This document shows positions 343 through 23,130 of a stretch of DNA of 33,343 nucleotides, in pieces. The DNA is from Patescibacteria group bacterium (lineage in GTDB: Bacteria > Patescibacteriota > Gracilibacteria > UM-FILTER-43-11), in NCBI GenBank assembly GCA_029260985.1, contig JAJDCE010000036.1:1-33343 (forward strand). The letters are read 5' to 3'. Each line of letters opens with the position of its first letter. The stretch's first letter is position 1. The notes beneath the pieces were generated by a model that was given only the letters and a program-made list of their open reading frames with translations, had not been told where the DNA came from and ran no database searches. The translations under genes and the position numbers were made by a program.

Positions 343-482
343 TCAGGTGGTTAATCAGGTTGTTATTCAAGTGGTTTTTCATGTGGTCAATTTCACCATA
401 TAGCATGACAGACTACATGATAAACGGCCGAAGACCTGATAGACAACCTGAAAGACGGCCGAAGGCCTGAAAAACAACATGT
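343..482. repeat. Bipartite inverted 12-bp tandem repeat element
   Basis: Left arm has four TCAGGTGGTTWW-like units (343-390). Right arm has reverse-complement-like units such as TAGACAACCTGA (440-451), two of them carrying a GGCCGAAG insert. Confidence 0.8.
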
Positions 483-484
483 AA

Positions 485-1378
485 TTAAACAGCAATCGGA
501 AATCTAATAGGTTCATCACTTTCATACCCAACCAATTCAAAATCCTCAAACTCCAGATCCCAAATCGACTTTTTAGCGATCTTAAGGCGAGGGAGCTTTT
601 TAGGAGTTCGTGTCAGTTGCTCCTTAAGCCCCTCAAAGTGGTTGGAGTAAATATGAGCATCTCCAAACGTATGGATGAAATAGCGAGGCGTCAAATCACA
701 CTCCTGTGCAATCATCATCAAAAGCATCGAATAGCTGGCGATATTAAAAGGCACCCCAAGAGCAATATCCGCGCTTCGCTGATAAAGCTGCATATCAATC
801 ATTCCATTATTCACGTAAAACTGAAAGAGAGTATGGCAAAGCGGAGGGGCAGATGTTTTCCCTTTTATTAACTCTTGAATATCGGCCACATTCCAACCAC
901 TCACAATATGCCGCCTGGAGTCAGGCTTTGCTTTAATCTGATCGAGTACATTTTGAATCTGGTTGATCGGAGCGCCGCTTGGCCCTTCCCAACGAATCCA
1001 CTGCTTTCCATAGACCGGTCCCAACTCTCCCCACATTTTGGCGAATCCATCATCAGTTTTAATCTTCTCCACAAATTCCTCAAGCGTTTCACTTTGATAC
1101 GCTTCACTGGCTTTATAGGTTTCATAGGGCCACTCATTCCAGATCCTAACATTTCGATCCACCAGGTATTTTATATTGGTATCACCCTTTAAAAACCAAA
1201 GGAGTTCATGCAAGATTCCGCGGAAGTAAACTTTTTTAGTGGTCGCCAGAGGAAAACCTTCCCGAAGGTCATACCGGTTTTGATACCCAAACACCGAAAG
1301 CGTTCCGGTCCCAGTCCGATCTTCCTTTTTCTCTCCATTTTCCAGCACATGTTTAACGAGCTCAAGATATTGTTTCAT
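485..1378 (-). CDS. thyA: Thymidylate synthase ThyA
   Basis: Motifs [36 protein letters not shown] (catalytic Cys), [18 protein letters not shown] and GDAHIY. Confidence 0.98.
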
Positions 1379-1446
1379 GAGTTCAATATATCGGAACTAG
1401 GTCGAAGTGCAAGTGACAACTTGGCTTAATTAATTTAAACTTGCAC

Positions 1447-1488
1447 TTAGTTCTTAGTCCCTAGTTCTTAGTCCCTAGTTCTTAGTTC
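1447..1488 (+). repeat. Heptamer tandem repeat (YTAGTYC x6)
   Basis: ttagttc ttagtcc ctagttc ttagtcc ctagttc ttagttc, immediately upstream of nnrE. Confidence 0.9.
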
Positions 1489-1495
1489 AAAATAA

Positions 1496-2191
1496 ATGGA
1501 ATATCTCAGTACATCCGATATGCAAACATTAGAAAGATATGCATTCGAAAACTATCCCATCACGTTAGAGCAAATGATGCAGAACGCCGGGAAAGCGATT
1601 TTTGATGTGGTGATGAATGAGGTTTTGCCGAATATCCAACCAACTGTAAGTGGGGATCCCCATCCCCACATATTAGTTATAAGCGGAAAAGGTAATAATG
1701 GAGGTGATGCCCTTGTGACCGCGCGCTTATTGAAAGAGAAGGGGATTGAAGTAGTTGTTCTTGAGCCCTATTCTGATGTTGGACAAAGTGTCGGGAATTT
1801 CGACAACAACTTTTCACTCATCATTGATGCTCTTTTCGGCTTTTCCTTAAAAGGAGATCCAAAACCGCCCACCGACAAGCTTATTGAACAAATTAATTGT
1901 TCATTCTTCGACTGCGCTCAGAATGACAATAGTAAGCCAGAAAAGCATATTCCCGTTTTATCGGTCGACGTTCCATCGGGACTAGATGTGCATGATGGCT
2001 CAATTGGTAATCCAACCGTCAAAGCTGATTACACCTTGGCTCTCGGCATGCTAAAAAAAGGATTTGAGGAACATCCTGATCTTGTCGGTAAAACATTTTT
2101 AGGTGATCTCGGAATTCCTGAGGACGCTTACAGAGAGCAGGGATATGAGCCACCTATATTTAGGGGTAAATCCTACCTTTTCGTCAATTGA
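1496..2191 (+). CDS. nnrE: NAD(P)H-hydrate epimerase (stand-alone YjeF N-terminal domain)
   Basis: Motifs MMQNAGKA, GKGNNGGDALV, IIDALFGFS, SVDVPSG and DLGIP. Confidence 0.92.
   Translation: MEYLSTSDMQTLERYAFENYPITLEQMMQNAGKAIFDVVMNEVLPNIQPTVSGDPHPHILVISGKGNNGGDALVTARLLKEKGIEVVVLEPYSDVGQSVGNFDNNFSLIIDALFGFSLKGDPKPPTDKLIEQINCSFFDCAQNDNSKPEKHIPVLSVDVPSGLDVHDGSIGNPTVKADYTLALGMLKKGFEEHPDLVGKTFLGDLGIPEDAYREQGYEPPIFRGKSYLFVN
1896..1930. repeat. REP-like hairpin inside nnrE
   Basis: attgttcattct-tcgactgcgctc-agaatgacaat. The core TTCGACTSCGCTCA recurs inverted near 23081-23094. Confidence 0.65.
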
Positions 2192-2243
2192 AAAATCAGA
2201 GAGGGATGGTTATAATTCATGGGCAATATATTATGGTTATATC

Positions 2244-2271
2244 GTAGAGACACAAAATTTTGTGTCTCTAC
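2244..2271. repeat. Perfect 28-bp palindrome, GTAG-type REP-like
   Basis: gtagagacacaaaa|ttttgtgtctctac is its own reverse complement and starts with GTAG. Confidence 0.85.
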
Positions 2272-2305
2272 CGAAAAACCATATTTACAAATTAATTTAT
2301 TGCCC

Positions 2306-3463
2306 ATGAAAACCCTCCAAGACGCATCGGATTTAACCGGTAAAAAGGTAATCGTCAGGGTCGATTTTAATGTTCCTCTGGATGAGGAGGGAAATGTTCG
2401 TAACGATAAGCGTATTCGCCATGCTTTACCAACCATCAAACATCTATTGGAAGCGGGTGCCGCTCAGGTTATTTTAATGTCACACGTTGGGCGACCAAAG
2501 AATAATGAAGAGAGCTTAAAAACAGGAAAGATCGCCGCTAAGCTTGCTGAACACCTTGGGCAGGAAGTTGAAAAAGTGGATGATTGGGGTGAAGCAGGTC
2601 TGCCTGAGGCAAAGGTAGTGATGCTCGAAAACCTGCGTTTCCATCCCGGTGAAAAAAGTAAAAATGAGGCAGAGGTTGAAGTTTTCAGTAAGCAATTGGC
2701 CTCACTTGCAGATGTTTATGTGAACGAAGCTTTTTCGAATTCTCATCGAAAGCATGCCAGCATGATGCTGCCAAAATTGATGGAGGGATTTGTCGGGTTC
2801 GGAGTTGAAAAAGAAGTTTCTGCCATTAAAGGCGCACTCGAAAATCCAGAACATCCAGTGGTCGCAGTCATTGGTGGTTTAAAGGCTGATAAGCTAACCG
2901 CCATTAATAATTTACTTGGTATCGCGGATGAAATTTTGGTCGCAGGAGCTTTAGCATTTACCTTGCTAAAAGCAAAAGGAAAGAACATGGGGGCGAGTAA
3001 AATTGACGACGAAGGTCTTGGTGAAATGGGGGATTTGCTCGAAAAGGTGAACGCTAGCGATAAAGTACATCTGCCTGTTGATTGCGTGGTTGCCGATAAT
3101 TTTGCGGAAGATGCCAATGCTAAAAATGTGTCTGTCGATTCCGTCGAAGACGGTTGGATGGCGCTCGACATTGGCCCTGAAACTGTAGGTCAGTACGTTG
3201 CCAAATTGAAAGAAGCAAAAACTATTCTCTGGTTCGGCCCCATCGGCGTATTCGAAATGGAACCCTTCAGTCATGGCACTAAAATGATCGGCCGTACGAT
3301 CGCCGAATCCGATGCTGTATCAATTGTCGGAGGAGGGGACAGCGCGTCAGCCGTTGAAAAGATGGGACTCGCTGACCAAATCACACTCGTTTCAACAGGA
3401 GGTGGAGCATCGCTTAAGATGATTGAAGGAAAAGAATTACCAGCTATTAAATTACTAACCTAA
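2306..3463 (+). CDS. pgk: Phosphoglycerate kinase
   Basis: Motifs VRVDFNVP, MSHVGRP, LENLRFH, ALDIGPET, GGGDS and STGGGASL. Start moved to ATG 2306 because the upstream extension runs through the palindrome. Confidence 0.98.
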   Translation: MKTLQDASDLTGKKVIVRVDFNVPLDEEGNVRNDKRIRHALPTIKHLLEAGAAQVILMSHVGRPKNNEESLKTGKIAAKLAEHLGQEVEKVDDWGEAGLPEAKVVMLENLRFHPGEKSKNEAEVEVFSKQLASLADVYVNEAFSNSHRKHASMMLPKLMEGFVGFGVEKEVSAIKGALENPEHPVVAVIGGLKADKLTAINNLLGIADEILVAGALAFTLLKAKGKNMGASKIDDEGLGEMGDLLEKVNASDKVHLPVDCVVADNFAEDANAKNVSVDSVEDGWMALDIGPETVGQYVAKLKEAKTILWFGPIGVFEMEPFSHGTKMIGRTIAESDAVSIVGGGDSASAVEKMGLADQITLVSTGGGASLKMIEGKELPAIKLLT

Positions 3464-3552
3464 ACTATAGATAGAACGATAGATGAAACAATAGATAAAC
3501 GATAAAGGTGTAGTTAAGCTTCAATCGTTTCCTCAATCGTTTCCTCAATCGT
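3461..3552. repeat. Bipartite inverted 12-bp tandem repeat element
   Basis: Left arm has four GAAACNATAGAT-like units (3461-3508). Right arm has TCAATCGTTTCC x2.7 (3521-3552), approximately the reverse complement. Confidence 0.85.
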
Positions 3553-3554
3553 AA

Positions 3555-5270
3555 ATGGGAAAAATAAGTAGACAAATCATCTATATCGAAATCGACGAGG
3601 AAGTCACTGCGATTTCTGATCGTATCAAACGGTTTCGCCGAAAGGAAATTCTTTTGGTGGTTCCAAGGAAAGCCATCCTTTTCCAAAGTGTGGTAAATCT
3701 AAAAATCCTCAAAAACAAGTTAAAGGAAAAGGGGAAACGGCTGATCATCGTGACCTCGGATCGGAACGGTAAGCACATGGCTGAAAAGGCTGGGATAAAA
3801 GTCTTAAAACGGGTTGAGGTAGAAAAAACTGAGGCTCAGGGGGAAGATACGCCTCAAATGAAAATTCAGCCCATTCAGGCCAGGCGGAACTTAACGCCAA
3901 AAGAAGAAAGGCCCCAACGATTCACGGAAAAAAAGATCAGCATTCGGGAGCTGCTATCCGAGTTTAGAATGCAGAATAAGAAGAAAAAGAAAGGATCTAA
4001 AGACTCGATGGACGACTTCAATTTCAATAAGCCAAAACGAAAATTCATCGCCCTTATCATTATTGTCAGCATCGGCCTTTTTGGCCTGATCACCTATATC
4101 GCTTTACCTAGCGCTACCATTTATATTCGGCCAAAATTCGATAATCTCGATTTCTCTGTAAACGTCACCTTGGCAGATAAGCGAAAAAACCAGACGTTGA
4201 TCAGGCAAAACAAGCCACACATTATTTCCAGCGAGGTGGTATCCACTAGCACCAAACAAACCAAGATTTACAAAACCGCCAGCAAGGAATTCAACGGAAC
4301 AAATGCGCAGGGGAAGATTCTGATCACCAATACTTTTAATGAGGAATGGGAACTTCGTGAAGGAACTCGTTTTCAAACCAAAGACGGTTTGGTGTTCCGC
4401 ATTAAAAAGGGGGTAATCGTCCCTCCAAAAAGCCGGGATGAAGCCGGCGAATTTAAGCCTGGAAACCTTGTGGCGATTGTGGAGGCCGACCCGTTTGATA
4501 TTTATGGCCAGCCCGTTGGAGCTGAGGGAAATTTGTCCCCAACTCGTTTTACAATCCCAGGTCTTTCCAAATACAATCAACGACTGATATGGGGAGAGTC
4601 TCATGAGCCTTTCGTTGGGGGAGTCACGAGCTATCGGGAAATTGTTGAAGAAGATGATATTGAGTCCGCTAAAAAGCAGATTCAGGACAATCTGATCCTG
4701 TTGGCAAAAGAGGACTTGAGAACCTACATCGATGAGGTGAATAAAATAAACAAAACCAATTTAACCCTCCTTGATGACAGCCGTTACTTGAAGACAGAGC
4801 TTGAGGATTTGCGGTTTTCAGATGATCTGGAAGGCAGCTACAAAGAAAAGTTTGAATTATTCGCCAGAATCAGCGCTGAAGGAGTAGCCTTTGATTTCGA
4901 TCAGCTCTTCGCCATTCTCAAAAAAGAATTGGGCACTCGAACTCATCCCAATATGCAGCTTCGTGACGACTCGATTGCGCCCGAAAACATCTCATACGAA
5001 GTGATTGATGAGGATGACATTCTTGGGCAGATTAAAATCACAGCGACTGTTATCGGGATCGAGGAGTTTGTGATAGAGCCGTCTACGGAAGCCGGCGCTC
5101 GGTTTGGCGCTAAAGTTAAGGAAAAGGTAGTGGGGTTGAGCCTTGAAGAGGCCGAAAGTCTGATCGGAAACCTTCCGGAGGTAGATGCGGTAGAGATAAA
5201 AAGCTGGCCCATCTGGATCAGTAAGATTCCTAGAATACCAGAAAGCATCGATATAAAATTGATGGACTAA
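3555..5270 (+). CDS. Single-pass membrane protein with baseplate J/gp47-like extracellular region
   Basis: 571 aa: N-terminal alpha/beta domain (IYIEIDEEVT..ILLVVP), one TM (FIALIIIVSIGLFGLITYIAL), then A-x-G-K-I-x-I-x-N, GTRFQT and GAEGNL patterns recalled from baseplate-J-like CPR proteins. Confidence 0.6.
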   Translation: MGKISRQIIYIEIDEEVTAISDRIKRFRRKEILLVVPRKAILFQSVVNLKILKNKLKEKGKRLIIVTSDRNGKHMAEKAGIKVLKRVEVEKTEAQGEDTPQMKIQPIQARRNLTPKEERPQRFTEKKISIRELLSEFRMQNKKKKKGSKDSMDDFNFNKPKRKFIALIIIVSIGLFGLITYIALPSATIYIRPKFDNLDFSVNVTLADKRKNQTLIRQNKPHIISSEVVSTSTKQTKIYKTASKEFNGTNAQGKILITNTFNEEWELREGTRFQTKDGLVFRIKKGVIVPPKSRDEAGEFKPGNLVAIVEADPFDIYGQPVGAEGNLSPTRFTIPGLSKYNQRLIWGESHEPFVGGVTSYREIVEEDDIESAKKQIQDNLILLAKEDLRTYIDEVNKINKTNLTLLDDSRYLKTELEDLRFSDDLEGSYKEKFELFARISAEGVAFDFDQLFAILKKELGTRTHPNMQLRDDSIAPENISYEVIDEDDILGQIKITATVIGIEEFVIEPSTEAGARFGAKVKEKVVGLSLEEAESLIGNLPEVDAVEIKSWPIWISKIPRIPESIDIKLMD

Positions 5271-5291
5271 CATTTGCAGGCTAGAATGATT

Positions 5292-5702
5292 TTAACTGCT
5301 TAGTATCTGATCGATTTCTTTACGTCGGCTGGTGAATTTTTCCAATGCATTCTTTGAAACCCTGTCCAGTCCTGCATTAACATTTTGACTCGGAAGAAAA
5401 CTTGTTTCCTGACCTTGAGCATCAATCAGATATCCCCCCCTAGTACGCTCACCGTTATACTTTTCCAAAAACCATGCTTCGTCTGTAGCCAGTAAAAAAA
5501 TTAGACACTCTTCTTGAAAAATTCGCATAAAATCCTCACTTACTCTACATAGCTTATCAGCCTGATCCATAATTTTATCCCGATCAGCCATAGAGTCATC
5601 ATTCTGAGCATGATCTAAGTGCGCGTAAGGATTATCATCCTTAATGATTGGCGCAGGCACGACATATTTTGTGCCTTCAATTGTCCTAGGTGAATTATTC
5701 AT
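5292..5702 (-). CDS. Hypothetical protein
   Basis: 136-aa ORF filling the gap downstream of the AEC transporter, with no recognisable motif. Confidence 0.6.
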   Translation of the reverse strand: MNNSPRTIEGTKYVVPAPIIKDDNPYAHLDHAQNDDSMADRDKIMDQADKLCRVSEDFMRIFQEECLIFLLATDEAWFLEKYNGERTRGGYLIDAQGQETSFLPSQNVNAGLDRVSKNALEKFTSRRKEIDQILSS

Positions 5703-5714
5703 GATTATTATAAG

Positions 5715-6641
5715 TTAGTTGAGTATCGAAACCCAAAAAGGAATCGTTATTGCCGCTAAAATCGTACTGAGCACAATCGAGCGGGCGATGAAGCCCTTAT
5801 TCAGCTTATAAGCCTCAGCGAGTGCAAAGGGAGTGATGGCTAGTGGCATGGCCGCATCGATGATGGAGATTGAAAATTGACTGGGCAGAAAGCCAAAAAG
5901 CCTTACGCCAAAGTAAAATAAGGCGGGCAATAGCAGAAGCGTCACAAAAGAAAAGGCAATGGCGGGCTGCCACTTTTTAAAGGAACCGATTTTAGATCGT
6001 CCGATAAAAAATCCGATCACCAGAAGAACCACAGGGGTCACAGACGCTGCCACCATGCTGATAGACTTAGCTATGACAGAGGGGATGGGGAGATTTAAAA
6101 TTGTCACCAATAGCCCGAGAGCAACAGCAATGAGAAGAGGATTTTTGACTAAATGCAGGAGTACTGTTTTAAATAAATCCCTTTTTGACTTTTGCTGAGA
6201 CATTTCTAAGTAACCAACTCCCACTGTGAAAAGCCAGAATAGATAGACCGCTATTATTAAGCTTAAGGCAGGCAAAACGGCATCGCCAAAGACCTGAGCC
6301 AATGTGGGAATACCGAGATAAGCGACATTACCAAACCCAAGGCAGATAAAAAGAGTTCGAAGGTTCTTCTGTCCAATTCTGAAAACCTTGCCAAAAAAGT
6401 AGGCAATAAGAAAGCTCGCTACAAGAAAGAGGGAGTTTGAAGAAATTAGGCTGACTTGTTCTGAAAAAACAAAACTAGCCTTAGTAAGAGCTGAAAAAAT
6501 CAGTGCAGGAAAACCAATTTTAAGCGCATAATTATTGAGAACAGGTGACCAATGCTCATTAGTGAGCTTCAAGCGCTCCAAAACGGCCCCCAAAAGGATA
6601 ATCAGAAACAACGGCGCGATAACAATGAGTATCTCAATCAT
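5715..6641 (-). CDS. AEC (auxin efflux carrier) family transporter
   Basis: About 10 TM segments with motifs IGFPALIF, FGNVAYLGIP, KNPLLIA and AAMPLA. Confidence 0.9.
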   Translation of the reverse strand: MIEILIVIAPLFLIILLGAVLERLKLTNEHWSPVLNNYALKIGFPALIFSALTKASFVFSEQVSLISSNSLFLVASFLIAYFFGKVFRIGQKNLRTLFICLGFGNVAYLGIPTLAQVFGDAVLPALSLIIAVYLFWLFTVGVGYLEMSQQKSKRDLFKTVLLHLVKNPLLIAVALGLLVTILNLPIPSVIAKSISMVAASVTPVVLLVIGFFIGRSKIGSFKKWQPAIAFSFVTLLLLPALFYFGVRLFGFLPSQFSISIIDAAMPLAITPFALAEAYKLNKGFIARSIVLSTILAAITIPFWVSILN

Positions 6642-6652
6642 AGAAATGGCGG

Positions 6653-6699
6653 AATAGAAAAATAGCGCATTAGAACATTAGAAGAATAGAACAATGGCA
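6653..6699 (+). repeat. Degenerate octamer tandem repeat (AWTAGAAC-like)
   Basis: aatagaaa aatagcgc attagaac attagaag aatagaac. The same family occurs at 7419-7498, 29091-29118 and about 30130-30146. Confidence 0.7.
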
Positions 6700-7416
6700 T
6701 TAAAGCTCTTCAATATCTATCTTGCCCATATCCTCAATCTTTTCGTTATGAGCCGTGTCCGGATTGTAGATGCGGTAAAAGAGCTCGACGAGCTGTGGAG
6801 TGGTCAGTTGAGCCGCTCTCAAATTGCAGGACTCTAGCCCGGTTTTAACTGAATTTACCCGTTCCATCAAATGCTTTTTTACCTCCTCAAACTCGTGATG
6901 GCGCCGTTTGATACTATCAATACTGTCGCCAGACGAAATACTTTGCATGAATTTAGAGAAGATATTCGGCTTTTGAGCCCGATAAGGGTCAAACGGAACG
7001 ATAACGTAAAAATTCTTCTCCATAATATCCGCGTATTCAATCAGTTTTTCAACATAATCCGCGTATTCAAGCGTTTGCTGCTTAAGAAGAGGATTTTCAT
7101 GCTGGCTTGCTTTTTCCTTCACACTATCAACGTACTTATCGATATCAAGTTTGCGGGATTGAACATGAATCTGAATCGGGAACTCAAGTGAATTAAGGAA
7201 GTTTTGATAGGAATAAATGATACTGTTCTGCTCATCCTCAGACTTGAGATTAAAATTAACGCTCGACGTCTGAAGAATTGCTCTCATTCCTCCATTTTTC
7301 AGAATCACCACATCATCCTTAATTTCAGCGATATTCAGATGAAGTTGAGTACTGGCAGCAGGAGAGCCTTTCTTCTGCTTTACAGTATCCTTTGCTTTAG
7401 GTTGTGCGTCAGCCAT
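6700..7416 (-). CDS. TraC/VirB4-N-terminal-like protein (no ATPase domain)
   Basis: Motifs IAEIKDDVVILKNG, SVNFNLKSEDEQ, FLNSLEFPIQI and KNFYVIVP. Lies downstream of a PrgI-like gene, an arrangement I recall from CPR genomes. Confidence 0.65.
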   Translation of the reverse strand: MADAQPKAKDTVKQKKGSPAASTQLHLNIAEIKDDVVILKNGGMRAILQTSSVNFNLKSEDEQNSIIYSYQNFLNSLEFPIQIHVQSRKLDIDKYVDSVKEKASQHENPLLKQQTLEYADYVEKLIEYADIMEKNFYVIVPFDPYRAQKPNIFSKFMQSISSGDSIDSIKRRHHEFEEVKKHLMERVNSVKTGLESCNLRAAQLTTPQLVELFYRIYNPDTAHNEKIEDMGKIDIEEL

Positions 7417-7418
7417 TT

Positions 7419-7498
7419 TGATTGAGTTATTGTTTTATTTTTCTATTTTGCTATTGATCTATTTAAATAGAAAATTAGAGCATTAGCCAAATAGAACA
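7419..7498. repeat. Bipartite inverted octamer repeat element
   Basis: CTATTTTG-like units on the left and AAATAGAA-like units on the right, meeting at the palindrome ctatttaaatag (7459-7470). Confidence 0.7.
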
Positions 7499-8431
7499 CT
7501 AGTCCAAATTGAGGTCGATTTCTCCCTTCTCCAGCTCCCGGAATTCCATTGCGTCTGAGTCAGGATGGCTCGTTGCCTTTTTCTGAGTTGATGGACTCGC
7601 CGGTGGGATGGAAGAGGATTGAGCCTTAGGTGTAATTGTATTCACAGCTGAGCTAGGCCGAGCCGGAGCAGCGGGTTTGCGCCGTGGACGTCGTTTTTTG
7701 GTGGCTGTCGGAGCTGCTGCAGTGGTTGGTGAAGACTCCATAGACTCCTCCACCTCCTTCTTAACTTTAGCGATCTCTTGTCGAGCGGCCATAGCTTCCA
7801 CAGACCCTTTCTTGATTTTTGTCACAGGCATTTTAGCGAAAACATCGAGCATTTTCATATGACTCTCTTTGGTACGCCAGTACATATTTTGAGTATCACT
7901 GTCCTTTTGCTTATGGCCAAAGTACGCTTCGGACACCAAATCATCATCATGAGTCGTATCGATATCCTCATGCTCTTTCTTATGCACATGCTCAAAGCCC
8001 CCGCTGTCGAGTGTTTGAGTTAATTCACGCAGGTTAGCGGCTCGTTTAGCTTTCCGTTCATAATCTGCTTCAGCATCATCAGCTTCGGCGCCAGTCACGG
8101 TCTGACTTCCAAGATCAGGGGCTACTAACGCAGCAATTCCTCGATGATCCCATATACGTTTCTTGGGTTTAATCGAAAATTCCAGAAATAAATACATGAA
8201 CTTGATCAAAGGGATGTTATTGATTTTGATTAAGGCAAAGGCAATCGAAAATAAAAGAGGAATAGCGATCACAAAGTATTCGATAAAATTCAAATCATAA
8301 ATCTTGGTCAGGATCGCAAAAAGCACATAGCTGATCCCCCCGCCAACGGCCAGGATAATCAGCTGTTTTAGAGTCAGTGGACCGACAATTTTGTCTTCAA
8401 TGCCTACGTTTTGAGGAATTTTAAATTGCAA
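7499..8431 (-). CDS. PrgI family protein with long low-complexity C-terminal tail
   Basis: MQFKIPQNVGIEDKIVGPLTLKQL plus two TMs plus PKKRIW, the PrgI/TcpE-like pattern. TTG start. Confidence 0.8.
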   Translation of the reverse strand: MQFKIPQNVGIEDKIVGPLTLKQLIILAVGGGISYVLFAILTKIYDLNFIEYFVIAIPLLFSIAFALIKINNIPLIKFMYLFLEFSIKPKKRIWDHRGIAALVAPDLGSQTVTGAEADDAEADYERKAKRAANLRELTQTLDSGGFEHVHKKEHEDIDTTHDDDLVSEAYFGHKQKDSDTQNMYWRTKESHMKMLDVFAKMPVTKIKKGSVEAMAARQEIAKVKKEVEESMESSPTTAAAPTATKKRRPRRKPAAPARPSSAVNTITPKAQSSSIPPASPSTQKKATSHPDSDAMEFRELEKGEIDLNLD

Positions 8432-8523
8432 GAGATATGATTTAATCTAATTATTATACCATAAAAACACCTCAAAATAAAGGGTTATTCAGAGAGGAAA
8501 TGAAAGTTTCGGGAAATGGGGAA

Positions 8524-8573
8524 AAGGCGGTGTATTCACGGTGGGATCTCGTAAGAGATTGTGAAACCGCCTT
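8524..8573 (-). terminator. Long interrupted stem-loop after the PnuC-like gene
   Basis: Nested stems aaggcggt/accgcctt, ttcac/gtgaa and atctc/gagat, with a short U-run on the minus strand. Confidence 0.55.
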
Positions 8574-9156: not shown

Positions 9157-9203
9157 CAAACACTTCCGATTCTTGTCGCGTTAATGTTAATGACCGGCCA
9201 CTT

Positions 9204-13989: not shown

Positions 13990-14013
13990 CAGTTTGAGTG
14001 ATTAAATCACTGA

Positions 14014-16188: not shown

Positions 16189-16264
16189 AAGTAAATCATT
16201 ATAATCTAATTATTATAACATATTTACTTAAAAGTATCAATAGATACCAAAAAGGCGTCGGTCA

Positions 16265-16316
16265 GCCTGCCGGCTGGCAGGCAGGTCCGAAATCAATACG
16301 AAATCAACACGAAATT
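16265..16316. repeat. GC hairpin plus 11-bp tandem repeat downstream of rplI
   Basis: gcctgcc-ggct-ggcaggc (16265-16282), then cgaaatcaata cgaaatcaaca cgaaatt. Confidence 0.7.
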
Positions 16317-16758
16317 ACTCCGCTTCAATCACCACCTTAACCTCAGTTGAAATATCCTCATTCAGCTGAAGTTTTACTTTATGTTCTCCTAAATCTTTTA
16401 ATGGTTCATCAAGTTTAACCATATCCTTAGAGATTTCTACCTTCTGCTCCTTCTTCAGAGCGTCAATAAGGTCAGTCTCTTTAATAGAACCATATAGCTT
16501 TTCACCTCGTGCCTTTTTCTTGAAAGTGAGAACAGCATCTTTAAGTTTGTCAGCCACTTCCTTGGCATTTTCCAGAACAGCCTCAAGTTTAGCAGAAACC
16601 TTAGCTTTCATTCCTTCAGCTTTCTTTAGCTCACCGGCAGTGGCAATAACTGCAAGCTTTTGGGGAAGCAAAAAATTTCGGGCGTAACCGACTTTTACAT
16701 TCACCACATCATAAGGATTTCCGAGCTTAGGAACACGTTTTTTTAGTACGACTTGCAT
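16315..16758 (-). CDS. rplI: 50S ribosomal protein L9
   Basis: Motifs VKVGYARNFLLP, KLYGSI and LGEHKV. Confidence 0.97.
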   Translation of the reverse strand: MQVVLKKRVPKLGNPYDVVNVKVGYARNFLLPQKLAVIATAGELKKAEGMKAKVSAKLEAVLENAKEVADKLKDAVLTFKKKARGEKLYGSIKETDLIDALKKEQKVEISKDMVKLDEPLKDLGEHKVKLQLNEDISTEVKVVIEAE

Positions 16759-16765
16759 CTGAATT

Positions 16766-16830
16766 TAATTAGGAATTAGAAATTATGAATTTTGGGCTTA
16801 GAACTTAAGACTTATAGCTTAAGGCTAAGG
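16766..16830 (+). repeat. Degenerate heptamer tandem repeats
   Basis: aattagg aattaga aattatg, then cttagaa cttaaga cttatag cttaagg. Confidence 0.7.
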
Positions 16831-16831
16831 A

Positions 16832-18937
16832 TTAAAATTGTTTTACGATCCAGCTGACAAAAGTGAGAGGATTGACCCCTTCCGCGAAGCGGCGATCTAC
16901 CCGCGCGTACCAGTCATGAATGCGGGCGAACCGATCAGTTGTAGTCGCCAGATTCTCAAAGGTTGCGTTCTGAATCTTGTCGGAAAGAGCAAAGTTATAA
17001 GTAGGGCTATAGAGGAAGATTGCAGGGATTTCTTTGCTGATGATCTCTTGAATTTTGCCCAAGGTTCTTTTACGATCCTCGACATCATCTTCGAGCCTGG
17101 CTTTATCCAGAAGGCTGTCGACAATAAAATTCTTGAACTGAGAAAGATTATAACCTCCTTCTTTAGCCTGACTGCTATGCCAGTAAGGATAAGCGTCGAG
17201 ATTATAGCCCAGATTCTGACCAAAAATCAACAGATCATAGTTTCGCTTAAACAGCGCCTCCTGAAATTCGCCATTTTCAAGGACCTCAATAGTAAGACCG
17301 ATGCCGACCTTTTTCCATTGTTCCTTGATGACAGAAGCAACCTGACTATAGGCTTCAGGCGTTTTGGGCACAACCATCCGTAAGATCAGTGTTTCATCAT
17401 TATCATTGAGTCGGATCGGAAGAACATCTGCCTCAAGATTCTCCACTGCAATTTCTTTTAGTTCTTCTTCGATAAACTGATCCTCAGTTCCCTGGGTGAT
17501 GGTAATAGAGTCAATCAGTGATTTCTCTTCATCAAATCCAACCGCGTAAACCTCAAAAAGATTATTACCTTTCTTTAAATTTTCAAATTCAAAGCTCGCC
17601 ACATAACTCCAGCCTAGGTCGCCCGGTATATATTTTTTAAGTTCATAATCGTTCACGAAAATAGACTTAGTCTTATCCGGAACCGTTCCGGTGATGGTGA
17701 TTTTTTTATCGGTGGTTTGCCAATCTTTTCCTCCATTCGGCCCCGTAATAAATTCAGGCTCAGCGCTTTCCTCATCCTCAATTATTTCCTCTATCGTTTC
17801 CTCTATAGTTTCACCTATTGTTTCATCGACTTTATCGGGGAGCTGCCACTCCGTTTCAAACAAAGCTCCATTAGCTTTATTGATGCTGTACTGATAAACC
17901 CAATTTTTCTGATCAATTTCAAGCAGGGGAGTGTCAATTCGCTTAGTCTGCCCCAAGGTTTCAACAATGGCATCTTTGTCAGTGCCGAGCTGAAGAGCCA
18001 GGCGCACTTTTGGATCCTTGAGTACTTCAGCCTGAGTATTCATAAACACCGCCACGTACTGAGGCAGATGATAGCGGGTTAAACTGAGTCGTCCGCGGCT
18101 CAAAATCTTTTCAGTGTTTTCCTCGGGTAAATTCCTAATGCCATCCAGGTCACCTTGGCGTTTGATAAGTTCTTTAAAATGAGAAAATACCTTTATCTTA
18201 ATGGTGGGAATGTTCGGCGCTTTGCCGTAATATCCCTCATAAGCCTCGAGAGTGACCTCCGAATAATCCTCGATAGGAGTTAGGGAAACAAATTGATAGG
18301 GCCCACTTCCAACGGGGAAGAGATTATAGGGGTCGCTTTCAATAGCTTCGACTGGCAAATGCCCCAAAAGATGGGATGGAAGGATACCGGCCAAAGTTTT
18401 AACCAGGAAGAAGGAATCAGGAGATTCAAGGAGGAATTTAACCGTTCGTTCGTCAACTTCAGCCACCTTAATCCCACTGTAATCATTGTAATTAAGAATA
18501 AGACCATTAAAGCCCGGAGTATTGATCACTGAGTTATAGGTGAAAAGAATATCAGCGCTGGTCACCGGAGCTCCGTCATGCCATTTGGCATTGTCTTTAA
18601 TTACAAAGGTATATTCCTTGCCATTCGAGGACACCGTAAAATCAGCCAGATCAGGCACAATTTCATTGGTTTTAGGATCAAATCGGGTAAGACCCGAGAA
18701 TATAAGGGTGGTCAGATCATGAGACACACTTCCCAGAGAGACATAGAGCGGATTGATCAAGTCGACTTTGCCCACAGCGCCTTCGGTGTAAACCCCGCCT
18801 TGAACAGGCTTCATTTCCGTGTGTTCATCATAAAAAGCATGGCCAATCTGAAAACCCGACACCGCGACCACAAGGGATAAAAAGGTGACCGTGATTTTTT
18901 CAAGCTGATTGAGGATGCTAAAACGGCGTTTGAACAT
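16832..18937 (-). CDS. ABC transporter substrate-binding protein (family 5, OppA/DppA-like) with inserted Ig-like domain
   Basis: Motifs GGVYTEG, LIFSGL, PDLA, KWHDGAPVTSADILFT, PVGSGPY, VRLAL and YWHSSQ. Start set at ATG 18937 because the upstream extension is repeat DNA. Confidence 0.88.
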   Translation of the reverse strand: MFKRRFSILNQLEKITVTFLSLVVAVSGFQIGHAFYDEHTEMKPVQGGVYTEGAVGKVDLINPLYVSLGSVSHDLTTLIFSGLTRFDPKTNEIVPDLADFTVSSNGKEYTFVIKDNAKWHDGAPVTSADILFTYNSVINTPGFNGLILNYNDYSGIKVAEVDERTVKFLLESPDSFFLVKTLAGILPSHLLGHLPVEAIESDPYNLFPVGSGPYQFVSLTPIEDYSEVTLEAYEGYYGKAPNIPTIKIKVFSHFKELIKRQGDLDGIRNLPEENTEKILSRGRLSLTRYHLPQYVAVFMNTQAEVLKDPKVRLALQLGTDKDAIVETLGQTKRIDTPLLEIDQKNWVYQYSINKANGALFETEWQLPDKVDETIGETIEETIEEIIEDEESAEPEFITGPNGGKDWQTTDKKITITGTVPDKTKSIFVNDYELKKYIPGDLGWSYVASFEFENLKKGNNLFEVYAVGFDEEKSLIDSITITQGTEDQFIEEELKEIAVENLEADVLPIRLNDNDETLILRMVVPKTPEAYSQVASVIKEQWKKVGIGLTIEVLENGEFQEALFKRNYDLLIFGQNLGYNLDAYPYWHSSQAKEGGYNLSQFKNFIVDSLLDKARLEDDVEDRKRTLGKIQEIISKEIPAIFLYSPTYNFALSDKIQNATFENLATTTDRFARIHDWYARVDRRFAEGVNPLTFVSWIVKQF

Positions 18938-18946
18938 AATTAAAAA

Positions 18947-19027
18947 AAGTGCGAGTCTCAAGTGCGAGTCTCTCATCGAGCCTGAGCGGCCTCGGAGCCG
19001 AAGGCAAGTGCGAGTCTCAATGAGACT
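18947..19027. repeat. 13-bp repeat x3 with nested hairpin module
   Basis: AAGTGCGAGTCTC at 18947, 18960 and 19006, with insert gcctgagcggcctcggagccgaaggc and terminal hairpin agtctca-a-tgagact. Confidence 0.8.
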
Positions 19028-19030
19028 GAT

Positions 19031-19243
19031 TTAGACAAAAACAAAGAGTAAGGCATTGAGCAGGAAGAGGCCTCCGAGTAAAACGGTAGCGATAAAAAGA
19101 ACTTTCTCAGGCCCTCGCTTGGTTGCAGAGAAACTTCCGGAACCACCAGAGGCGGTGAAACCTTCATCTTTACCCTGAATCAGAATTAAGAAAGAAAGAA
19201 GGAGTGCAATGATAATTTGAGAGGCGATGAGTAACTTCTCCAT
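19031..19243 (-). CDS. secG: Preprotein translocase subunit SecG
   Basis: Two TMs, ILIQ, a Gly-rich loop and TKRGPEKVLF. Start ATG 19243. Confidence 0.9.
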   Translation of the reverse strand: MEKLLIASQIIIALLLSFLILIQGKDEGFTASGGSGSFSATKRGPEKVLFIATVLLGGLFLLNALLFVFV

Positions 19244-19334
19244 GATAATAAGTGTTAAAAGCGGAAAAAGTCTAGCACAAGAAAGAGGGGAATACAATTT
19301 ATAATTGCCAGAAGATTGACATTTTTACTTTTCA

Positions 19335-19364
19335 TTGACAAATGTAAAACTAAATGATTATATT
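19335..19364 (+). promoter_or_regulatory. Sigma70-type promoter
   Basis: TTGACA followed after 18 bp by TATATT, upstream of the small ORF and comF. Confidence 0.5.
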
Positions 19365-19400
19365 GAAACCAATCTCACATAGTTATAACCCTCCAAAAAT

Positions 19401-19592
19401 ATGAGTGAAATAATTGATAGAACCAGACAAACTGAAATGGATATTGATGCGACCATGGATGCACACGGTACCCTGTTTGGTGAAGAGCCGCCCGTTGATG
19501 AGCAGACATGGAATAAAATGCTATCTCAAATGAGTGCAGAAAGGGCAGCTCAGGCAGAAAGGGATAATGTAGCTGCAATATTTGATAAATAG
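19401..19592 (+). CDS. Small acidic hypothetical protein
   Basis: 63-aa ORF between a promoter and comF, with the stop 4 bp before the comF ATG. Confidence 0.55.
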   Translation: MSEIIDRTRQTEMDIDATMDAHGTLFGEEPPVDEQTWNKMLSQMSAERAAQAERDNVAAIFDK

Positions 19593-19596
19593 TGGA

Positions 19597-20277
19597 ATGA
19601 GGTTTATCAATGCGCTTAAAGCGTTTATCCTAAACACCTTGTTCCCTCCCGTATGCGTTTCCTGTAAAAAGGAAGGGGATTTTTTGTGTATGGACTGCCT
19701 TAATAGTCTGGACAAAAAAAAGATCAGTCAAAGCTATAAAAAAATCGATGACCCCGACCTCCATCATCTGGATGGCGTGATATACGCTTTGGATTACGCA
19801 AAAAATCCGCAGATCCAGGCCGCTATAAAACAGCTCAAATATAAATTCACTCAGGATCTGGCAAAGCACTTTGCGGATATGATGGCACTGAAGCTATCGG
19901 AACTCAATATGGTAAAGGGGCATAAAATTATTCTCATCCCAGTGCCATTGCATAAAAAGCGATTAAACGAGAGAGGGTTTAACCAGGCGGAAGTGATTGC
20001 AAAACTCATCGATAATGCAGAGGTAATACCGATGCTTGAGCGAGTACGAAACACTAAACAGCAGGCAAGACTTAGTAAAAAGGAGCGGCATGAAAACCTT
20101 ACAGGAGCTTTTAGGTTGAACAAAAAATGTATTCACAAATACAATTCAGAAAACATCTATTTCCTCGTCGATGATGTTTGCACCACAGGTTCCACCCTGG
20201 AAAAATGCGCTGAAGTCCTCAAGAAGAATGGGATTGAGAAGGTGTATGGTTTAGTAATTGCACGGGCATTTAAGTAG
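19597..20277 (+). CDS. comF: ComF family competence protein (zinc ribbon plus PRTase domain)
   Basis: Motifs LFPPVCVSC...LCMDC, IPVPLH, RGFNQAE and LVDDVCTTGSTL. Confidence 0.93.
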   Translation: MRFINALKAFILNTLFPPVCVSCKKEGDFLCMDCLNSLDKKKISQSYKKIDDPDLHHLDGVIYALDYAKNPQIQAAIKQLKYKFTQDLAKHFADMMALKLSELNMVKGHKIILIPVPLHKKRLNERGFNQAEVIAKLIDNAEVIPMLERVRNTKQQARLSKKERHENLTGAFRLNKKCIHKYNSENIYFLVDDVCTTGSTLEKCAEVLKKNGIEKVYGLVIARAFK

Positions 20278-20278
20278 C

Positions 20279-20413
20279 TGTCTGAACCGCTGATTCTCAG
20301 GATTACTGAAATGTATCAGGATGGATTTACGTGATTATCCTGCGAAGTCCGCCTTTAGAGGGATAATCCATCACGGTAAATCCATACAATCCTGTGAATC
20401 AGCGGTTCAGACA
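20279..20413. repeat. 135-bp MITE-like nested inverted repeat
   Basis: Arms tgtctgaaccgctgattctcaggatt / aatcctgtgaatcagcggttcagaca (25 of 26 complementary), with inner stems atggatttac-gtgat / atcac-ggtaaatccat and attatcc / ggataat. Confidence 0.85.
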
Positions 20414-20492
20414 AGGGGGGTTAGGGGTTATGGGAGGTTTTAATTTTCTATTTTTTATTGTATCTTTATTCCGCATTTTAAATAATAAAAAA

Positions 20493-21794
20493 ATGATAAA
20501 GTTCGCCGTCATCTCATTTCCCGGAAATAATTGTGAAGTCGAAACCGTTCGCGCGTTCAAGCGTAATGGAATGGAGGCCGAGACTATTCTGTGGAACGAT
20601 CCCGGCATGTTGGATAAGAGCAGGTGTTATGAATTTGACGGCTATTGTCTGGCTGGTGGTTTTAGCTACGAGGATCGTAGCCGTAGCGGAGTGATTGCAG
20701 CCCAGAATCCAATTTTGGACATCATTAAAAAAGAAGCCGAAACAGGAAAAGTGGTGATCGGCATCTGTAATGGGGCGCAAACGTTAATCGAAACGGGTTT
20801 GATCCCGGGGTTCGAAAACTATGATCTGGCTGCTGGCTTGGCTTGGAATGAAATGATTAAAGGTGATGAGGTGGTTGATACGGGGTTTAGAAATTCATGG
20901 GCCTACTTAAAAAACATTGCTCCAAAAAATCGATCTGCCTTCAATAATTTCGATGGCCTGCTGCATATTCCTTACGCGCATGGAGAGGGAAGATTTGTCT
21001 TTAAAGATCTAAAAGTTCTGGAACTGTTAAAAGAAAACAATCAAATCCCTTTCCAATATTGCAATGAGGAAGGAAAGGTTGATCATGAATTTCCCATTAC
21101 TCCAAACGGTTCCACGGATTCTATCGCCGCCCTCTGCAATCCCGCAGGAAATGTGATGGCCATCATGCCTCACCCGGAAAGAGACCCAAGGGGAAATGGG
21201 AATAAGATATTCGAATCGATTCGGGACTGGATTGAGAACAAAAAGAAATCTGAATATAAAAGTTTAGGTGAGCATAAAACGAAGGAGGATATTCGTGATT
21301 TTGGAGAAGCAGACTTGGAGTTTCTGGTTCGTTTGATCATTGTGGATAACGCGGAAAGAACCGTTGAACAAGCTATACGTAAGAGAGGATTTGAGGTGAA
21401 ATTGAAACGATACATTTACTGGTCAGCCTCACTAGCGCCTGGAGTAGACAAAAAGGAGGCCGCGCTAAAAATAATTCAATCAGGCGAGCTGGCGAATCTG
21501 AATAAAGAGTGGATTTACATAAATATTGATGGAAAGCCTTATTCTTATAATAAAGAGGATGGGCTTCAGCAGGCAGAAATGGAATTTAAGAATTATCTGG
21601 TAACCTGCGATCACGAAAATTTTGTCGGGGAAAGCAAAAAACAGACCATCAATCTGCATGCAGGTGAAATTATAAAATCAATCAAGGGAGGCGTTTTTTG
21701 GGAGGTGGAAAACACTGATGATGAAGGGGTTTATGAGATTATCCGAACAAAAATTTTATACAACCCGAATTCAATGTATATCATGAAGAAGTAA
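20493..21794 (+). CDS. purQ: FGAM synthase glutaminase subunit PurQ with about 180-aa C-terminal extension (probably two PurS-like domains)
   Basis: Motifs FPGNNC, GGFSYED, GICNGAQ (catalytic Cys), AHGEGRF, PNGS and MPHPER. Start ATG 20493. Confidence 0.92.
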   Translation: MIKFAVISFPGNNCEVETVRAFKRNGMEAETILWNDPGMLDKSRCYEFDGYCLAGGFSYEDRSRSGVIAAQNPILDIIKKEAETGKVVIGICNGAQTLIETGLIPGFENYDLAAGLAWNEMIKGDEVVDTGFRNSWAYLKNIAPKNRSAFNNFDGLLHIPYAHGEGRFVFKDLKVLELLKENNQIPFQYCNEEGKVDHEFPITPNGSTDSIAALCNPAGNVMAIMPHPERDPRGNGNKIFESIRDWIENKKKSEYKSLGEHKTKEDIRDFGEADLEFLVRLIIVDNAERTVEQAIRKRGFEVKLKRYIYWSASLAPGVDKKEAALKIIQSGELANLNKEWIYINIDGKPYSYNKEDGLQQAEMEFKNYLVTCDHENFVGESKKQTINLHAGEIIKSIKGGVFWEVENTDDEGVYEIIRTKILYNPNSMYIMKK

Positions 21795-21910
21795 CCAATG
21801 GCTATCCAATGGCTTTCCGATTGCTAACCGATTGCTAGTAACAACAGCAACTGGATAGCAATGGATAGCAACTGGACAGCGCGACGTCAGGAGCGGATAG
21901 CAGCAATAGA
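21795..21910. repeat. Bipartite inverted 11-bp tandem repeat element
   Basis: Left ccaatggctat ccaatggcttt ccgattgctaa ccgattgctag. Right acagcaactgg atagcaatgg atagcaactgg, with insert gcgacgtcaggagc. Confidence 0.85.
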
Positions 21911-21913
21911 AAA

Positions 21914-22987
21914 ATGAACAACTACAAACGAATCGTAATCAAAATAGGCACAAACGTAATCACCAAAGAGGACGGCCTTTTGGATAACAAGGTAATGAAG
22001 GGGCTTGTTTCTCAGATGGTTGAACTTAAAAAGTCCGGTGTGGATGTTGTTTTGGTTTCTTCCGGCGCCATGGGGGCAGGCCGCCCACTTGTAAGGCTTA
22101 AGCAGAAAGTCAGCCGGATTCTGGAAAGGCAGATTTTAGCCTCTGTAGGCCAAACACGGCTGATGAATCGTTATGATGAACTGCTATCCGCACATAGCTT
22201 TTTATGCGCACAGGTACTTGCAACCAAAGAAGATTTTCGGGATCGCAAACATTATCTGAACATGAAGAACTGCCTGGAGGGCTTGCTCCACGACCAGATC
22301 ATCCCCATCATCAACGAAAACGATGTAATATCGGTAGATGAGCTGATGTTTACGGATAATGATGAATTGGCAGGTTTACTGGCCTCGATGCTGAACGTTG
22401 ATGCCTTAATTGTTTTGACCAACGTGGACGGAGTTTTGGATTGCAGTAAAAAGGGAGCAAAAGTAATCTCCGAGGTCGATCACAAAAAGGCTAACGTGTT
22501 TTCGTGCATCACTCCGGAAAAATCTTCTTTCGGACGGGGAGGAATGCTGACCAAATGCCGGATCGCGGAACGAATGTCCCAAGTCGGGATCACCACACAC
22601 ATCGCAAATGGTAAAACAAAGTCCGTAGTAGTTGATATTTTGAAGGGTAAAAAGATTGGAACCAAATTCCTTCCACAAAAAAAGGTATCAGGAGTCAAAA
22701 AATGGATTGCTCATGCTGGAGGGCAGGAAAAAGGTGAAGTGATTATAGACGACCGCGCCTCCGAAATTCTCATGTCCGATGACAAAGCAGTCAGCCTTCT
22801 GCCTGTCGGAATCACAGAAGTATCAGGTAAATTCGAAAAAGGTGATATTATTCGCATCAGAAACGTCAGCGGCAAAAAAATCGGCCTTGGCGTCGCCCAG
22901 TACAGCTCTAAAAAAGCTAAAGAGTTTATCGGAAAGAAGGGCAAGAAACCTCTTGTGCATTATGATTATTTATTTATAAATTACTAG
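21914..22987 (+). CDS. proB: Glutamate 5-kinase with PUA domain
   Basis: Motifs IVIKIGT, VSSGA, ASVGQ, PIINENDV, DNDELA, GRGGMLTK and SLLPVGI. Confidence 0.97.
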   Translation: MNNYKRIVIKIGTNVITKEDGLLDNKVMKGLVSQMVELKKSGVDVVLVSSGAMGAGRPLVRLKQKVSRILERQILASVGQTRLMNRYDELLSAHSFLCAQVLATKEDFRDRKHYLNMKNCLEGLLHDQIIPIINENDVISVDELMFTDNDELAGLLASMLNVDALIVLTNVDGVLDCSKKGAKVISEVDHKKANVFSCITPEKSSFGRGGMLTKCRIAERMSQVGITTHIANGKTKSVVVDILKGKKIGTKFLPQKKVSGVKKWIAHAGGQEKGEVIIDDRASEILMSDDKAVSLLPVGITEVSGKFEKGDIIRIRNVSGKKIGLGVAQYSSKKAKEFIGKKGKKPLVHYDYLFINY

Positions 22988-23130
22988 GAGTTCAAATTGG
23001 TGCTCAAATGGGAGCTCAAATTGGGGTAAGTAGACTTACAGTAAAACTGACCCCCAATGTGAGCCCCGCGCCAAAGGCTTTGAGCGGAGTCGAAAAGACG
23101 AAGGAGCAGAGCCCCAATGTGAGCCCTAAT
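22987..23130. repeat. Bipartite inverted 12-bp tandem repeat element with nested REP-like module
   Basis: Left GGAGCTCAAATT-like x3. Right CCCCAATGTGAGCCC x2, separated by an insert containing tttgagcggagtcgaaaag and gacgaaggagc. Confidence 0.85.

Follow-up and report, generated by a model that had tools for sequence, protein, structure and literature searches.

Five spacers between co-oriented genes in a stretch of DNA from a Patescibacteria group bacterium (33,343 nucleotides, contig JAJDCE010000036.1, positions 1 to 33,343, hereafter the window) are filled by long hairpins, the arms of which are inverted arrays of 8-12-nt tandem units. We conclude that these spacers are probably members, lacking an open reading frame (ORF), of a class of palindromic inserts that resemble the intervening sequences (IVSs) of ribosomal RNA genes but lie outside rRNA. 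Other members enclose a gene for a four-helix-bundle (4HB) protein of the Avd-like TIGR02436/PF05635 family; elements bearing such a gene are called filled and ORF-less ones empty. The assembly that holds the window (GCA_029260985.1, here G000) comprises 1.53 Mb in 148 contigs and is 86% complete. Its contigs are designated by C and a number, the window being C78, related genomes by other G numbers, and loci in relatives or other genomes by L numbers. By ProB, the nearest named relatives of the organism are metagenome-assembled genomes (MAGs) of Candidatus Peribacteria/Peregrinibacteria, within the candidate phyla radiation (CPR). Gene calls were crude ORFs, score thresholds were our own, and the relatives are not mutually independent.

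The initial annotation of the window, made from its letters alone, had described five spacers of this layout and guessed their flanking genes. All five were found at the coordinates first given; each lies between co-oriented genes and is filled almost from stop to start codon, as had been claimed, and gene identification bore out the guesses on the neighbours, which include folA, thyA, pgk, purQ, proB and proC. Spacers were folded as RNA of the transcribed strand and compared with 200 dinucleotide shuffles each, and tandem arrays were detected with Tandem Repeats Finder (TRF). The five sites, all ORF-less, are as follows.

Positions 343 to 484, minus strand: site 1, spacer from thyA to folA; -41.0 kcal/mol, z -3.74. 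The left arm (343-390) consists of four 12-mers of the TCAGGTGGTTAA type, the centre spans 391-420, and the right arm (421-470) has three inverted units, of which two are split by a small GGCCGAAG(G) insert (426-433 and 457-467). TRF arrays: 343-391 (12-mer) and 406-481.

Positions 3464 to 3554, plus strand: site 2, spacer from pgk to the next gene; -20.6 kcal/mol, z -3.32. The left arm (about 3464-3504) has degenerate 12-mers of the ATAGATAGAACG type, the loop spans 3505-3520, and the right arm (3521-3552) is TCAATCGTTTCC repeated 2.7 times. TRF arrays: 3461-3504 and 3521-3552 (12-mers).

Positions 7417 to 7509, minus strand: site 3, an AT-rich spacer between two co-oriented minus-strand genes; -14.7 kcal/mol, z -3.94. 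An 8-mer array (7428-7464) faces an inverted array (7476-7509).

Positions 21795 to 21913, plus strand: site 4, spacer from purQ to proB; -39.9 kcal/mol, z -4.60. The left arm (21795-21838) consists of 11-mers, CCAATGGCTAT/CCGATTGCTAA, and the right arm (21846-21909) holds a nested GC-rich insert (21877-21894). TRF arrays: 21795-21837 and 21846-21880 (11-mers).

Positions 22988 to 23137, plus strand: site 5, spacer from proB to proC; -54.3 kcal/mol, z -5.79. The left arm (22988-23027) consists of GAGCTCAAATTG 12-mers with GGGG at its end, the centre spans 23028-23050, and the right-arm units (23051-23067 and 23110-23127, CCCCAATGTGAGCCC) are separated by a 42-nt GC-rich insert (23068-23109). 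TRF arrays: 22987-23024 and 23109-23134 (12-mers).

Each spacer forms one dominant long imperfect hairpin with arrays in both halves, and none of the 200 shuffles was as stable at any of the five (z -3.3 to -5.8), which upholds the inverted tandem-repeat layout. At site 3 pairing is limited to about 7441-7496 and the array to the left of the paired part is unpaired; its CTATTT/AAATAG-type units are common in G000 and also occur at the 4HB gene of C87. The small GC-rich mini-hairpin pieces nested in arm units of sites 1, 4 and 5 (e.g. GGCCGAAGGCC) are also present in the right arm of L170 in G014, and look like a second, tiny class of insert.

Hairpins of the same build enclose 4HB genes. G000 contains 12 matches to TIGR02436 at 65-120 bits (cut-off 24), none of them within the window, as had been noted at the outset together with the remark that such genes are often flanked by repeats of this kind. 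The remark proved correct in this genome: inverted flanks scoring at least 30 were found at 10 of the 11 scorable 4HB genes versus 8 of 324 ORFs of 90-170 aa, and at none of the 324 with reversed flanks. Tandem inverted arms were seen at the 4HB genes of C61, C3, C27, C28, C116, C64, C72, C121, C139 and C87; the arms at C126 are inverted and not tandem, the C125 gene has no arms, and the C27 gene, which lies at a contig end, has an inverted-flank score of 33. The arms consist of GGACTAA heptamers at C61, of the site-5 unit GGGGCTCAAATT at C3 (the flanks read GGGGCTCAAATTGGGG ... CCCCAATCTGAGCCCC), of CCGATTGCTA.. at C64, as in site 4, and of ACGATAGAT.. at C121, reminiscent of site 2. In the minimum free energy structure the C61 arms pair over 23 bp around the ORF, and a leader motif, TATTTTG(T/A)A or TAGTATTTAA, lies 5-25 nt upstream of most 4HB start codons. 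The C61 protein scored 124 bits against PF05635 and 45 bits against the bAvd-like PF22296. An AlphaFold2 model of the 4HB protein (pLDDT 95.5) has four helices, and Foldseek matched it to 2gsc (TM 0.91) and 2rld (TM 0.86), which the sequence profile also matches, and to the Avd proteins of diversity-generating retroelements (DGRs; 4dwl and 8ub7, TM 0.80-0.85). The association extends beyond G000. TIGR02436 genes were present in 25 of 31 related genomes, with up to 13 per genome, and inverted flanks (at least 30) were found at 18 of 26 scorable loci versus 1 of 26 in the reversed control. Among Bacteroidota, inverted tandem arms, ATTTCGG heptamers among them, flanked 8 of the 11 4HB genes scored, which came from Mucilaginibacter oryzae, a Sediminibacterium and a Saprospiraceae MAG; over the examined genomes as a whole, such genes had inverted flanks in 49 cases out of 63.

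The 23S rRNA gene of G000 contains this type of insert twice. Classical IVS sites are the hairpin loops of 23S helices 9, 25 and 45. The G000 gene (C117:2486-6350) is 3865 nt long versus a model of 2925 positions, and holds two inserts. One is ORF-less, replaces the tip of helix 25 and carries inverted ATTTCNN heptamers (-63.2 kcal/mol, z -8.2), its arms reading TTTTTAC ATTTCGT ATTTCTG ATTTGAC ... AAATGAC ATTGCGA AATCTGA AATGTAA AATGCGA. The other, of 526 nt, sits in a hairpin loop at model position ~687-690 and has a 4HB-like ORF between the copies of a 25-nt inverted repeat; this ORF is preceded by a leader motif like that of the intergenic 4HB genes and scored 32.7 bits against PF05635, just below the cut-off of 33.8. 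The helix-25 insert has arms that match those of the C116 4HB element, and its loop shares ATTTAG[CT]ATTT..TTCATT..GTTAA with the C116 leader, which is the best evidence that an ORF-less copy may derive from a filled one. The 16S gene of G000 is without insert, and a gene for RNase III is present (C69:7008-7667, 247 bits).

Sites 2, 4 and 5 have two to three recognisable copies each in G000. One copy of site 2 lies at C141:6975-7078, where one arm is identical at 40/40 positions and the other arm and the loop have diverged, and a second at C101:9138-9195. The copy of site 4 at C28:14105-14230 has the same nested GC-rich insert, and site 4 also has a 21/21 match to the arms of the C64 4HB gene; for site 5, a related empty copy lies at C24:9040-9100, besides the unit that flanks the C3 gene. 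The genes flanking the gene-less copies were unrelated in every case, and the polarity of the copies relative to transcription was the same in 4 of 4. Filled and empty elements thus occur together in small mixed families in unrelated spacers. The initial statement that the five sites are not copies of one insertion sequence (IS) or miniature inverted-repeat transposable element (MITE) is correct in that their units are unrelated to each other, but has to be qualified in that three of them have paralogs elsewhere. Of the two ideas put forward with it, one invoking long RNA hairpins within polycistronic mRNA and the other a mobile gene system of which these would be empty sites, the second holds best: kinship with 4HB genes is strongly supported, with the arms of sites 4 and 5 matching those at C64 and C3, while actual mobility found no support, no recent filled copy being seen. 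The link to 23S IVSs had been missed.

Comparison with relatives showed that filled elements are inherited vertically across genera. The C61 element has an ortholog in G002 (L179), with 4HB proteins 78% identical, flanking proteins 64-80% identical, and GGACTAA arms of 4+4 units in G000 versus 3+3 in G002, so that copy number changed in parallel in the two arms. Between C27 and L170 of G014, the 4HB proteins are 63% identical and the arms are related 11-mers, with the cassette inverted relative to the flanking genes; apparently, one cassette was flipped between its arms. The filled element of C139 is orthologous in G004 and G013 (three genera). Orthologs of the window spacers were found in filled, empty, tandem-only and bare states, in agreement with the alleles that the initial annotation had proposed to look for. 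The spacer from thyA to folA contains 12-mers in the window, inverted TAATTCT heptamers in a second folA-thyA copy on C141, inverted AAATCCG/TTTCGAG heptamers of related type in G002 and G003, a tandem array without inversion in G012 and a 4HB element in G021; in G005 it measures 6 bp. Inverted arrays with unrelated units occupy the proB to proC spacer in the window, L001 and G003, and L196 has none (~8 bp); the purQ to proB spacer holds inverted arrays in the window, in L001 and in L196, and in G017 a 4HB gene follows purQ. At the counterparts of five other filled sites of G003 or G014, G000 has, once each, an empty inverted element, a perfect palindrome, a tandem-only array and a complex repeat, and at the fifth it has nothing. 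G000 is a fragmented assembly with contigs that break at repeats; a 4HB hot spot beside the ortholog of C6:5530-6834, for example, coincides with a contig end there. The second folA-thyA stretch (C141:20331-21116) is 83-88% identical to window positions 1-864 with a different spacer element, and represents either a co-binned sister strain or a duplication.

In the whole of G000 we catalogued 1091 non-redundant tandem arrays of period 6-24, with 893 distinct canonical units. An inverted partner, defined as a reverse-complement match at most 200 bp from the array with a Smith-Waterman score of at least 24, was found for 91 of them, versus 10 when the array was merely reversed and 12 when it was merely complemented; the layout noticed in the window recurs genome-wide. 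This alignment of arrays to their flanks replaced a pairing of TRF consensus sequences, which yielded no more than 14 inverted pairs and overlooked three of the window's five sites. A search with unit strings allowing 1-2 mismatches was discarded as too noisy, and families were not defined by single-linkage clustering of arms, which chained 154 spacers into one AT-rich cluster. The 91 arrays merge into 68 places; counted by spacer, they occupy 55 of 1074, of which 40 are co-oriented, 10 convergent and 5 divergent, and in 50 of these 55 the predicted structure covers at least 80% of the spacer. Mostly outside ORFs (14% of the genome) lie 428 arrays, with heptamers as the commonest intergenic period (146/428), and in 56 of 192 co-oriented spacers an array starts within 3 nt of the upstream stop codon. 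Complementarity between the arms was 0.805 at the optimal register, 0.765 after displacement by one unit and 0.31 out of phase (n=30): the stems are slidable, as first suggested, and each arm is homogenised separately. We also found arms without a gene, namely inverted heptamers around 583 bp (C106:8476-9058, ~1.6 kb from the 16S gene) and 291 bp (C108:5435-5725), where there was no ORF of at least 50 aa and no tblastn match to 4HB proteins. These may be decayed cassettes or carry other cargo.

Several of these features would suit hairpins that are neutral by-products, frequent slippage producing arrays and fold-back template switching turning them into quasi-palindromes, with no identity as elements and a link to the gene system only through shared permissive sites. 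Arrays of any kind were found in 292 of the 1074 spacers and inverted ones in only 55, the diversity of units is extreme, the arms slide and are homogenised separately, and the hairpins are strand-symmetric, as described below. This explanation is nevertheless unlikely: it does not account for the excess of inverted arms at 4HB genes over other small ORFs, seen likewise in a second phylum, for the recurrence of whole empty elements in unrelated spacers with conserved loop and nested insert, or for the arm type kept in orthologous filled elements across genera.

We then compared the two strands of the 40 co-oriented spacers. In 18 of them the sense strand folded more stably, in 22 the antisense strand, and G-U pairs numbered 128 versus 131. 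This symmetry bears on the idea that the hairpins are host-selected RNA structures, serving as intra-operon processing, stability or attenuation signals at particular junctions, with 4HB genes exploiting them as landing sites. Occupancy of the junctions would fit, since, of the 7 thyA-folA copies read, 5 have an inverted or tandem array and one more has a 4HB element, and the proB-proC and purQ-proB spacers are each occupied in the three genomes or loci named above; so would the filling from stop to start codon and the polarity kept by paralogs. However, besides the strand symmetry, terminator prediction called none of the five sites on the transcribed strand (site 5 gave two calls, on the opposite strand only), elements also occupy convergent and divergent spacers, some close relatives are without element (the 6-bp spacer of G005 and the ~8-bp spacer of L196), and sequence and even unit period are unconserved. 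Host selection is therefore improbable, and the RNA-level function entertained initially found no support. We argue from the strand symmetry that the matching of the arms is a DNA-level process. At the gathering score, Rfam 15 matched only one tRNA in the window.

The units could also be binding sites for the 4HB protein or a partner, in the manner of iterons or of subterminal repeats of transposons, the element working as DNA in mobility, inversion or maintenance and the empty copies being non-autonomous derivatives. Strand symmetry, the stable arm type among orthologous filled elements and the apparent cassette inversion agree with such a role, as do the 11-12-nt periods, close to one helical turn, and the resemblance of the fold to Avd, a nucleic-acid-handling protein. 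The period class of the arms weakly tracks the 4HB tree (1 change versus a mean of 2.9 in shuffles, 0/500 as low), in a set of 23 labelled rows with only 3 'long' and with 24 visibly periodic arms labelled 'none'. Against it, the diversity of units is extreme even where the 4HB proteins are related, heptamers rather than periods of 10-11 are the most frequent, the elements have no linked transposase or recombinase, G000 yielded no reverse transcriptase, and young copies are absent. We regard this explanation as quite unlikely.

We propose instead that the five spacers belong to the IVS-like class, in which a full-length member has a long stem, with arms made of inverted arrays of 6-12-nt tandem units, and a loop made of a short leader and the 4HB gene; an ORF-less member has the arms around a short loop. 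In the transcript, the arms may close into a duplex of 25-45 bp that insulates the insert. In rRNA, RNase III would excise the insert, as for classical IVSs, and in operons the upstream stop codon and the downstream start codon would be brought to the foot of one stem, so that the insert is tolerated. Replication slippage would operate within each arm while compensatory slippage or template switching would keep the arms matched, and the two together would yield the same layout with a different unit. ORF-less copies could arise from filled ones by internal deletion, and new spacers would occasionally be seeded. Most likely, the element is selfish or neutral rather than a host device.

Several points weigh against this proposal. 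Sites 1 and 3 are assigned to the class by architecture alone: site 1 has no paralog in G000 at E<0.06 (best match E 0.063), and site 3 is of low complexity with only weak matches in G000. The descent of empty from filled copies is backed by short motif similarity in one family only. Orthologous spacers usually carry different units, which would call for either repeated colonisation or fast turnover. As no strand bias was seen, complementarity is not visibly maintained by selection at the RNA level. No consistent target-site duplication was found at the ends of aligned copies and no transposase is linked to the elements. The 4HB paralogs of G000 are all intact and at most 58% identical, with no recent filled copies, and tblastn with 13 4HB proteins revealed no clear pseudogene in G000; given also the orthologous filled elements, the latter must be old, selected and mostly vertically inherited. 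Finally, the sequencing runs covered were low-depth DNA contigs, and the genes are crude ORF calls in a MAG that is 86% complete. In three DNA runs of one study (contigs, depth ~3) there were no indels or joints at sites 2-5, and one contig bridged site 3 unchanged, which carries no weight as to polymorphism or expression; a metagenome scan with ProB gave no close strain, the best match being 72% identical.

The closest known system is that of the 23S IVSs of Leptospira, Coxiella, Salmonella and others, which share terminal inverted repeats, a long stem extending a hairpin loop and an optional PF05635 ORF; G000 itself has two such inserts, one of them with the inverted tandem-heptamer arms of the intergenic elements. 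The elements differ in that the five sites and the 12 filled elements lie in protein-coding operon spacers and not in rRNA, that the intergenic arms are arrays of tandem units, and that there are some 55-68 ORF-less copies in 1.5 Mb. At the five sites the enclosing stem is present, the location is outside rRNA, and excision by RNase III would be by analogy. IVSs have been known since about 1990, and the role of their 'S23p' 4HB ORF is presented as still open (PMC4990558, PMC11270868). They are described as selfish, of unknown origin and mobility and excised by RNase III, some with a PF05635 ORF and others with none (PMC4990558). PF05635 ORFs are reported in rRNA inserts of CPR bacteria (PMC11270868), and PF05635 is said to resemble Avd (PMC10053308). 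The 4HB proteins share the four-helix-bundle fold of DGR Avd (by PF22296 score and TM); in contrast to DGRs, no template/variable repeat pair was found, there was no RVT_1 (reverse transcriptase) match in G000 (86% complete), and the 4HB genes stand alone inside hairpins.

Like repetitive extragenic palindromic (REP) sequences and bacterial interspersed mosaic elements (BIMEs) with their RAYT transposases, or like MITEs, the elements are short palindromes in operon spacers, some of them present in several copies, and non-autonomous copies outnumber gene-bearing ones; unlike them, they have no conserved ends, no target duplication and only 2-3 copies per family, and their cargo is a 4HB gene rather than a transposase. 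C59 carries a gene resembling the IS200/Y1 transposase (L193:1285-1800, minus strand, 29.8 bits) between GC-rich GGGTACAACCCTG hairpins unlike the five sites; this looks like a separate, REP/RAYT-like system. The short tandemly repeated repetitive sequences (STRRs) of cyanobacteria are intergenic direct repeats of heptamers. G000 has similarly abundant heptamer arrays in spacers, often ending at a start codon, whereas its units vary widely, and those arrays that are inverted, a subset, are linked to 4HB genes. For TAACTGA heptamers of Beggiatoaceae, cyanobacteria and Bacteroidetes, PMC4679880 gives 169 direct sets and 1 inverted set of one conserved unit. Compensatory slippage has been described in expansion segments of eukaryotic rRNA (Hancock and Dover 1990, as cited in PMC1888808). 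There too, repeats on one strand of a stem are matched on the other, as in the change from 4+4 to 3+3 units between G000 and G002; the eukaryotic case is under structural selection, whereas the stems described here are in mRNA spacers, without RNA-strand bias, and are tied to a gene cassette. CRISPR-like arrays were rejected (no constant-length spacers), as were coding repeats (the five sites are outside ORFs) and integron attC sites (there is no array; an integrase was not searched for).

Our literature search found nothing that describes 4HB genes enclosed by inverted tandem repeats, or IVS-like elements lying in the spacers of operons; subscription journals and supplements were outside that search. 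Curators' notes on the 4HB family may mention flanking repeats. The elements appear as a barely described kind of selfish insert that is also present in another phylum. More tentatively, it is possible, although we would not expect it, that IVSs are the visible tip of a widespread palindromic class with self-renewing inverted tandem arms and Avd-like 4HB cargo, which, at least in Patescibacteria and Bacteroidota, would colonise hairpin-tolerant spots in any transcript, rRNA helices as well as operon junctions. The ORF-less hairpins left behind would then form a major part of intergenic DNA, and the 4HB protein would maintain, flip or spread elements through its own repeat arms. One small genome with the element type in its 23S gene, in about a dozen operon spacers and as several dozen ORF-less hairpins makes questions about IVSs testable. 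Orthologous elements can be tracked across genera for parallel gain and loss of units, cassette flipping and filled, empty or bare alleles, which offers a natural system for studying compensatory slippage, and the recurrence in Bacteroidota makes genetics possible there. Much of the odd intergenic DNA in reduced CPR genomes would be explained, and annotators should treat such spacers neither as terminators nor as CRISPR-like arrays.

Three other repeat-bearing spacers of the window are less distinct than the five sites.

Positions 1446 to 1488: tandem-only heptamers (CTTAGTT/TAGTCCC) in the divergent spacer between thyA and an nnrE-like gene, of the GGACTAA family that forms the arms of the C61 4HB element; spacer 1379-1495 folds with z -1.50.

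Positions 6644 to 6693: tandem-only 8/16-mer array (AATAGAA type) in a co-oriented spacer, without hairpin; spacer 6642-6699 folds with z -0.69.

Positions 16767 to 16831: heptamer arrays (AATTAGG ... CTTAAG types) with a weak hairpin; spacer 16759-16831 folds with z -2.54, and 3 of 200 shuffles were as stable.

A further long palindrome, non-tandem, occupies positions 2192-2310 between the nnrE-like gene and pgk (-44.4 kcal/mol, z -8.47). The longest pgk ORF overlaps it with its first ~28 codons, Pgk matches in relatives begin at residue 22-29, and a copy 87% identical is present at C141:16981-17112. Tandem 12-mers near the arm unit of site 2 (GAGGAAACGATT type) also occur in frame within coding sequence, in the window (17775-17824, ORF 16832-18976) and at C41:14520-15010, where they encode repeats rich in E, T, I and V. 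Positions 29117-29374 (minus strand) hold a gene for an 85-aa chorismate mutase type II (PF01817), antisense between co-oriented plus-strand genes and adjoined by AAATAG-type arrays at 29091-29114.

The initial annotation had proposed to look for the units of the window sites at 4HB, GxxExxY or GIY-YIG genes. They do recur at 4HB genes (sites 4 and 5), whereas the repeats at GIY-YIG genes are of a different, non-tandem type. Two GIY-YIG genes of ~100 aa (PF01541) lie inside palindromic inverted repeats at C51:5359-5676 and C103:10766-11077 (L276 and L277). The flanking palindrome, of the GGATTCTGAAT...TTCAGAATGAC type, is dispersed in G000 and also stands alone in several spacers; by eye only, window positions 20278-20393 and 28468-28622 loosely resemble it.

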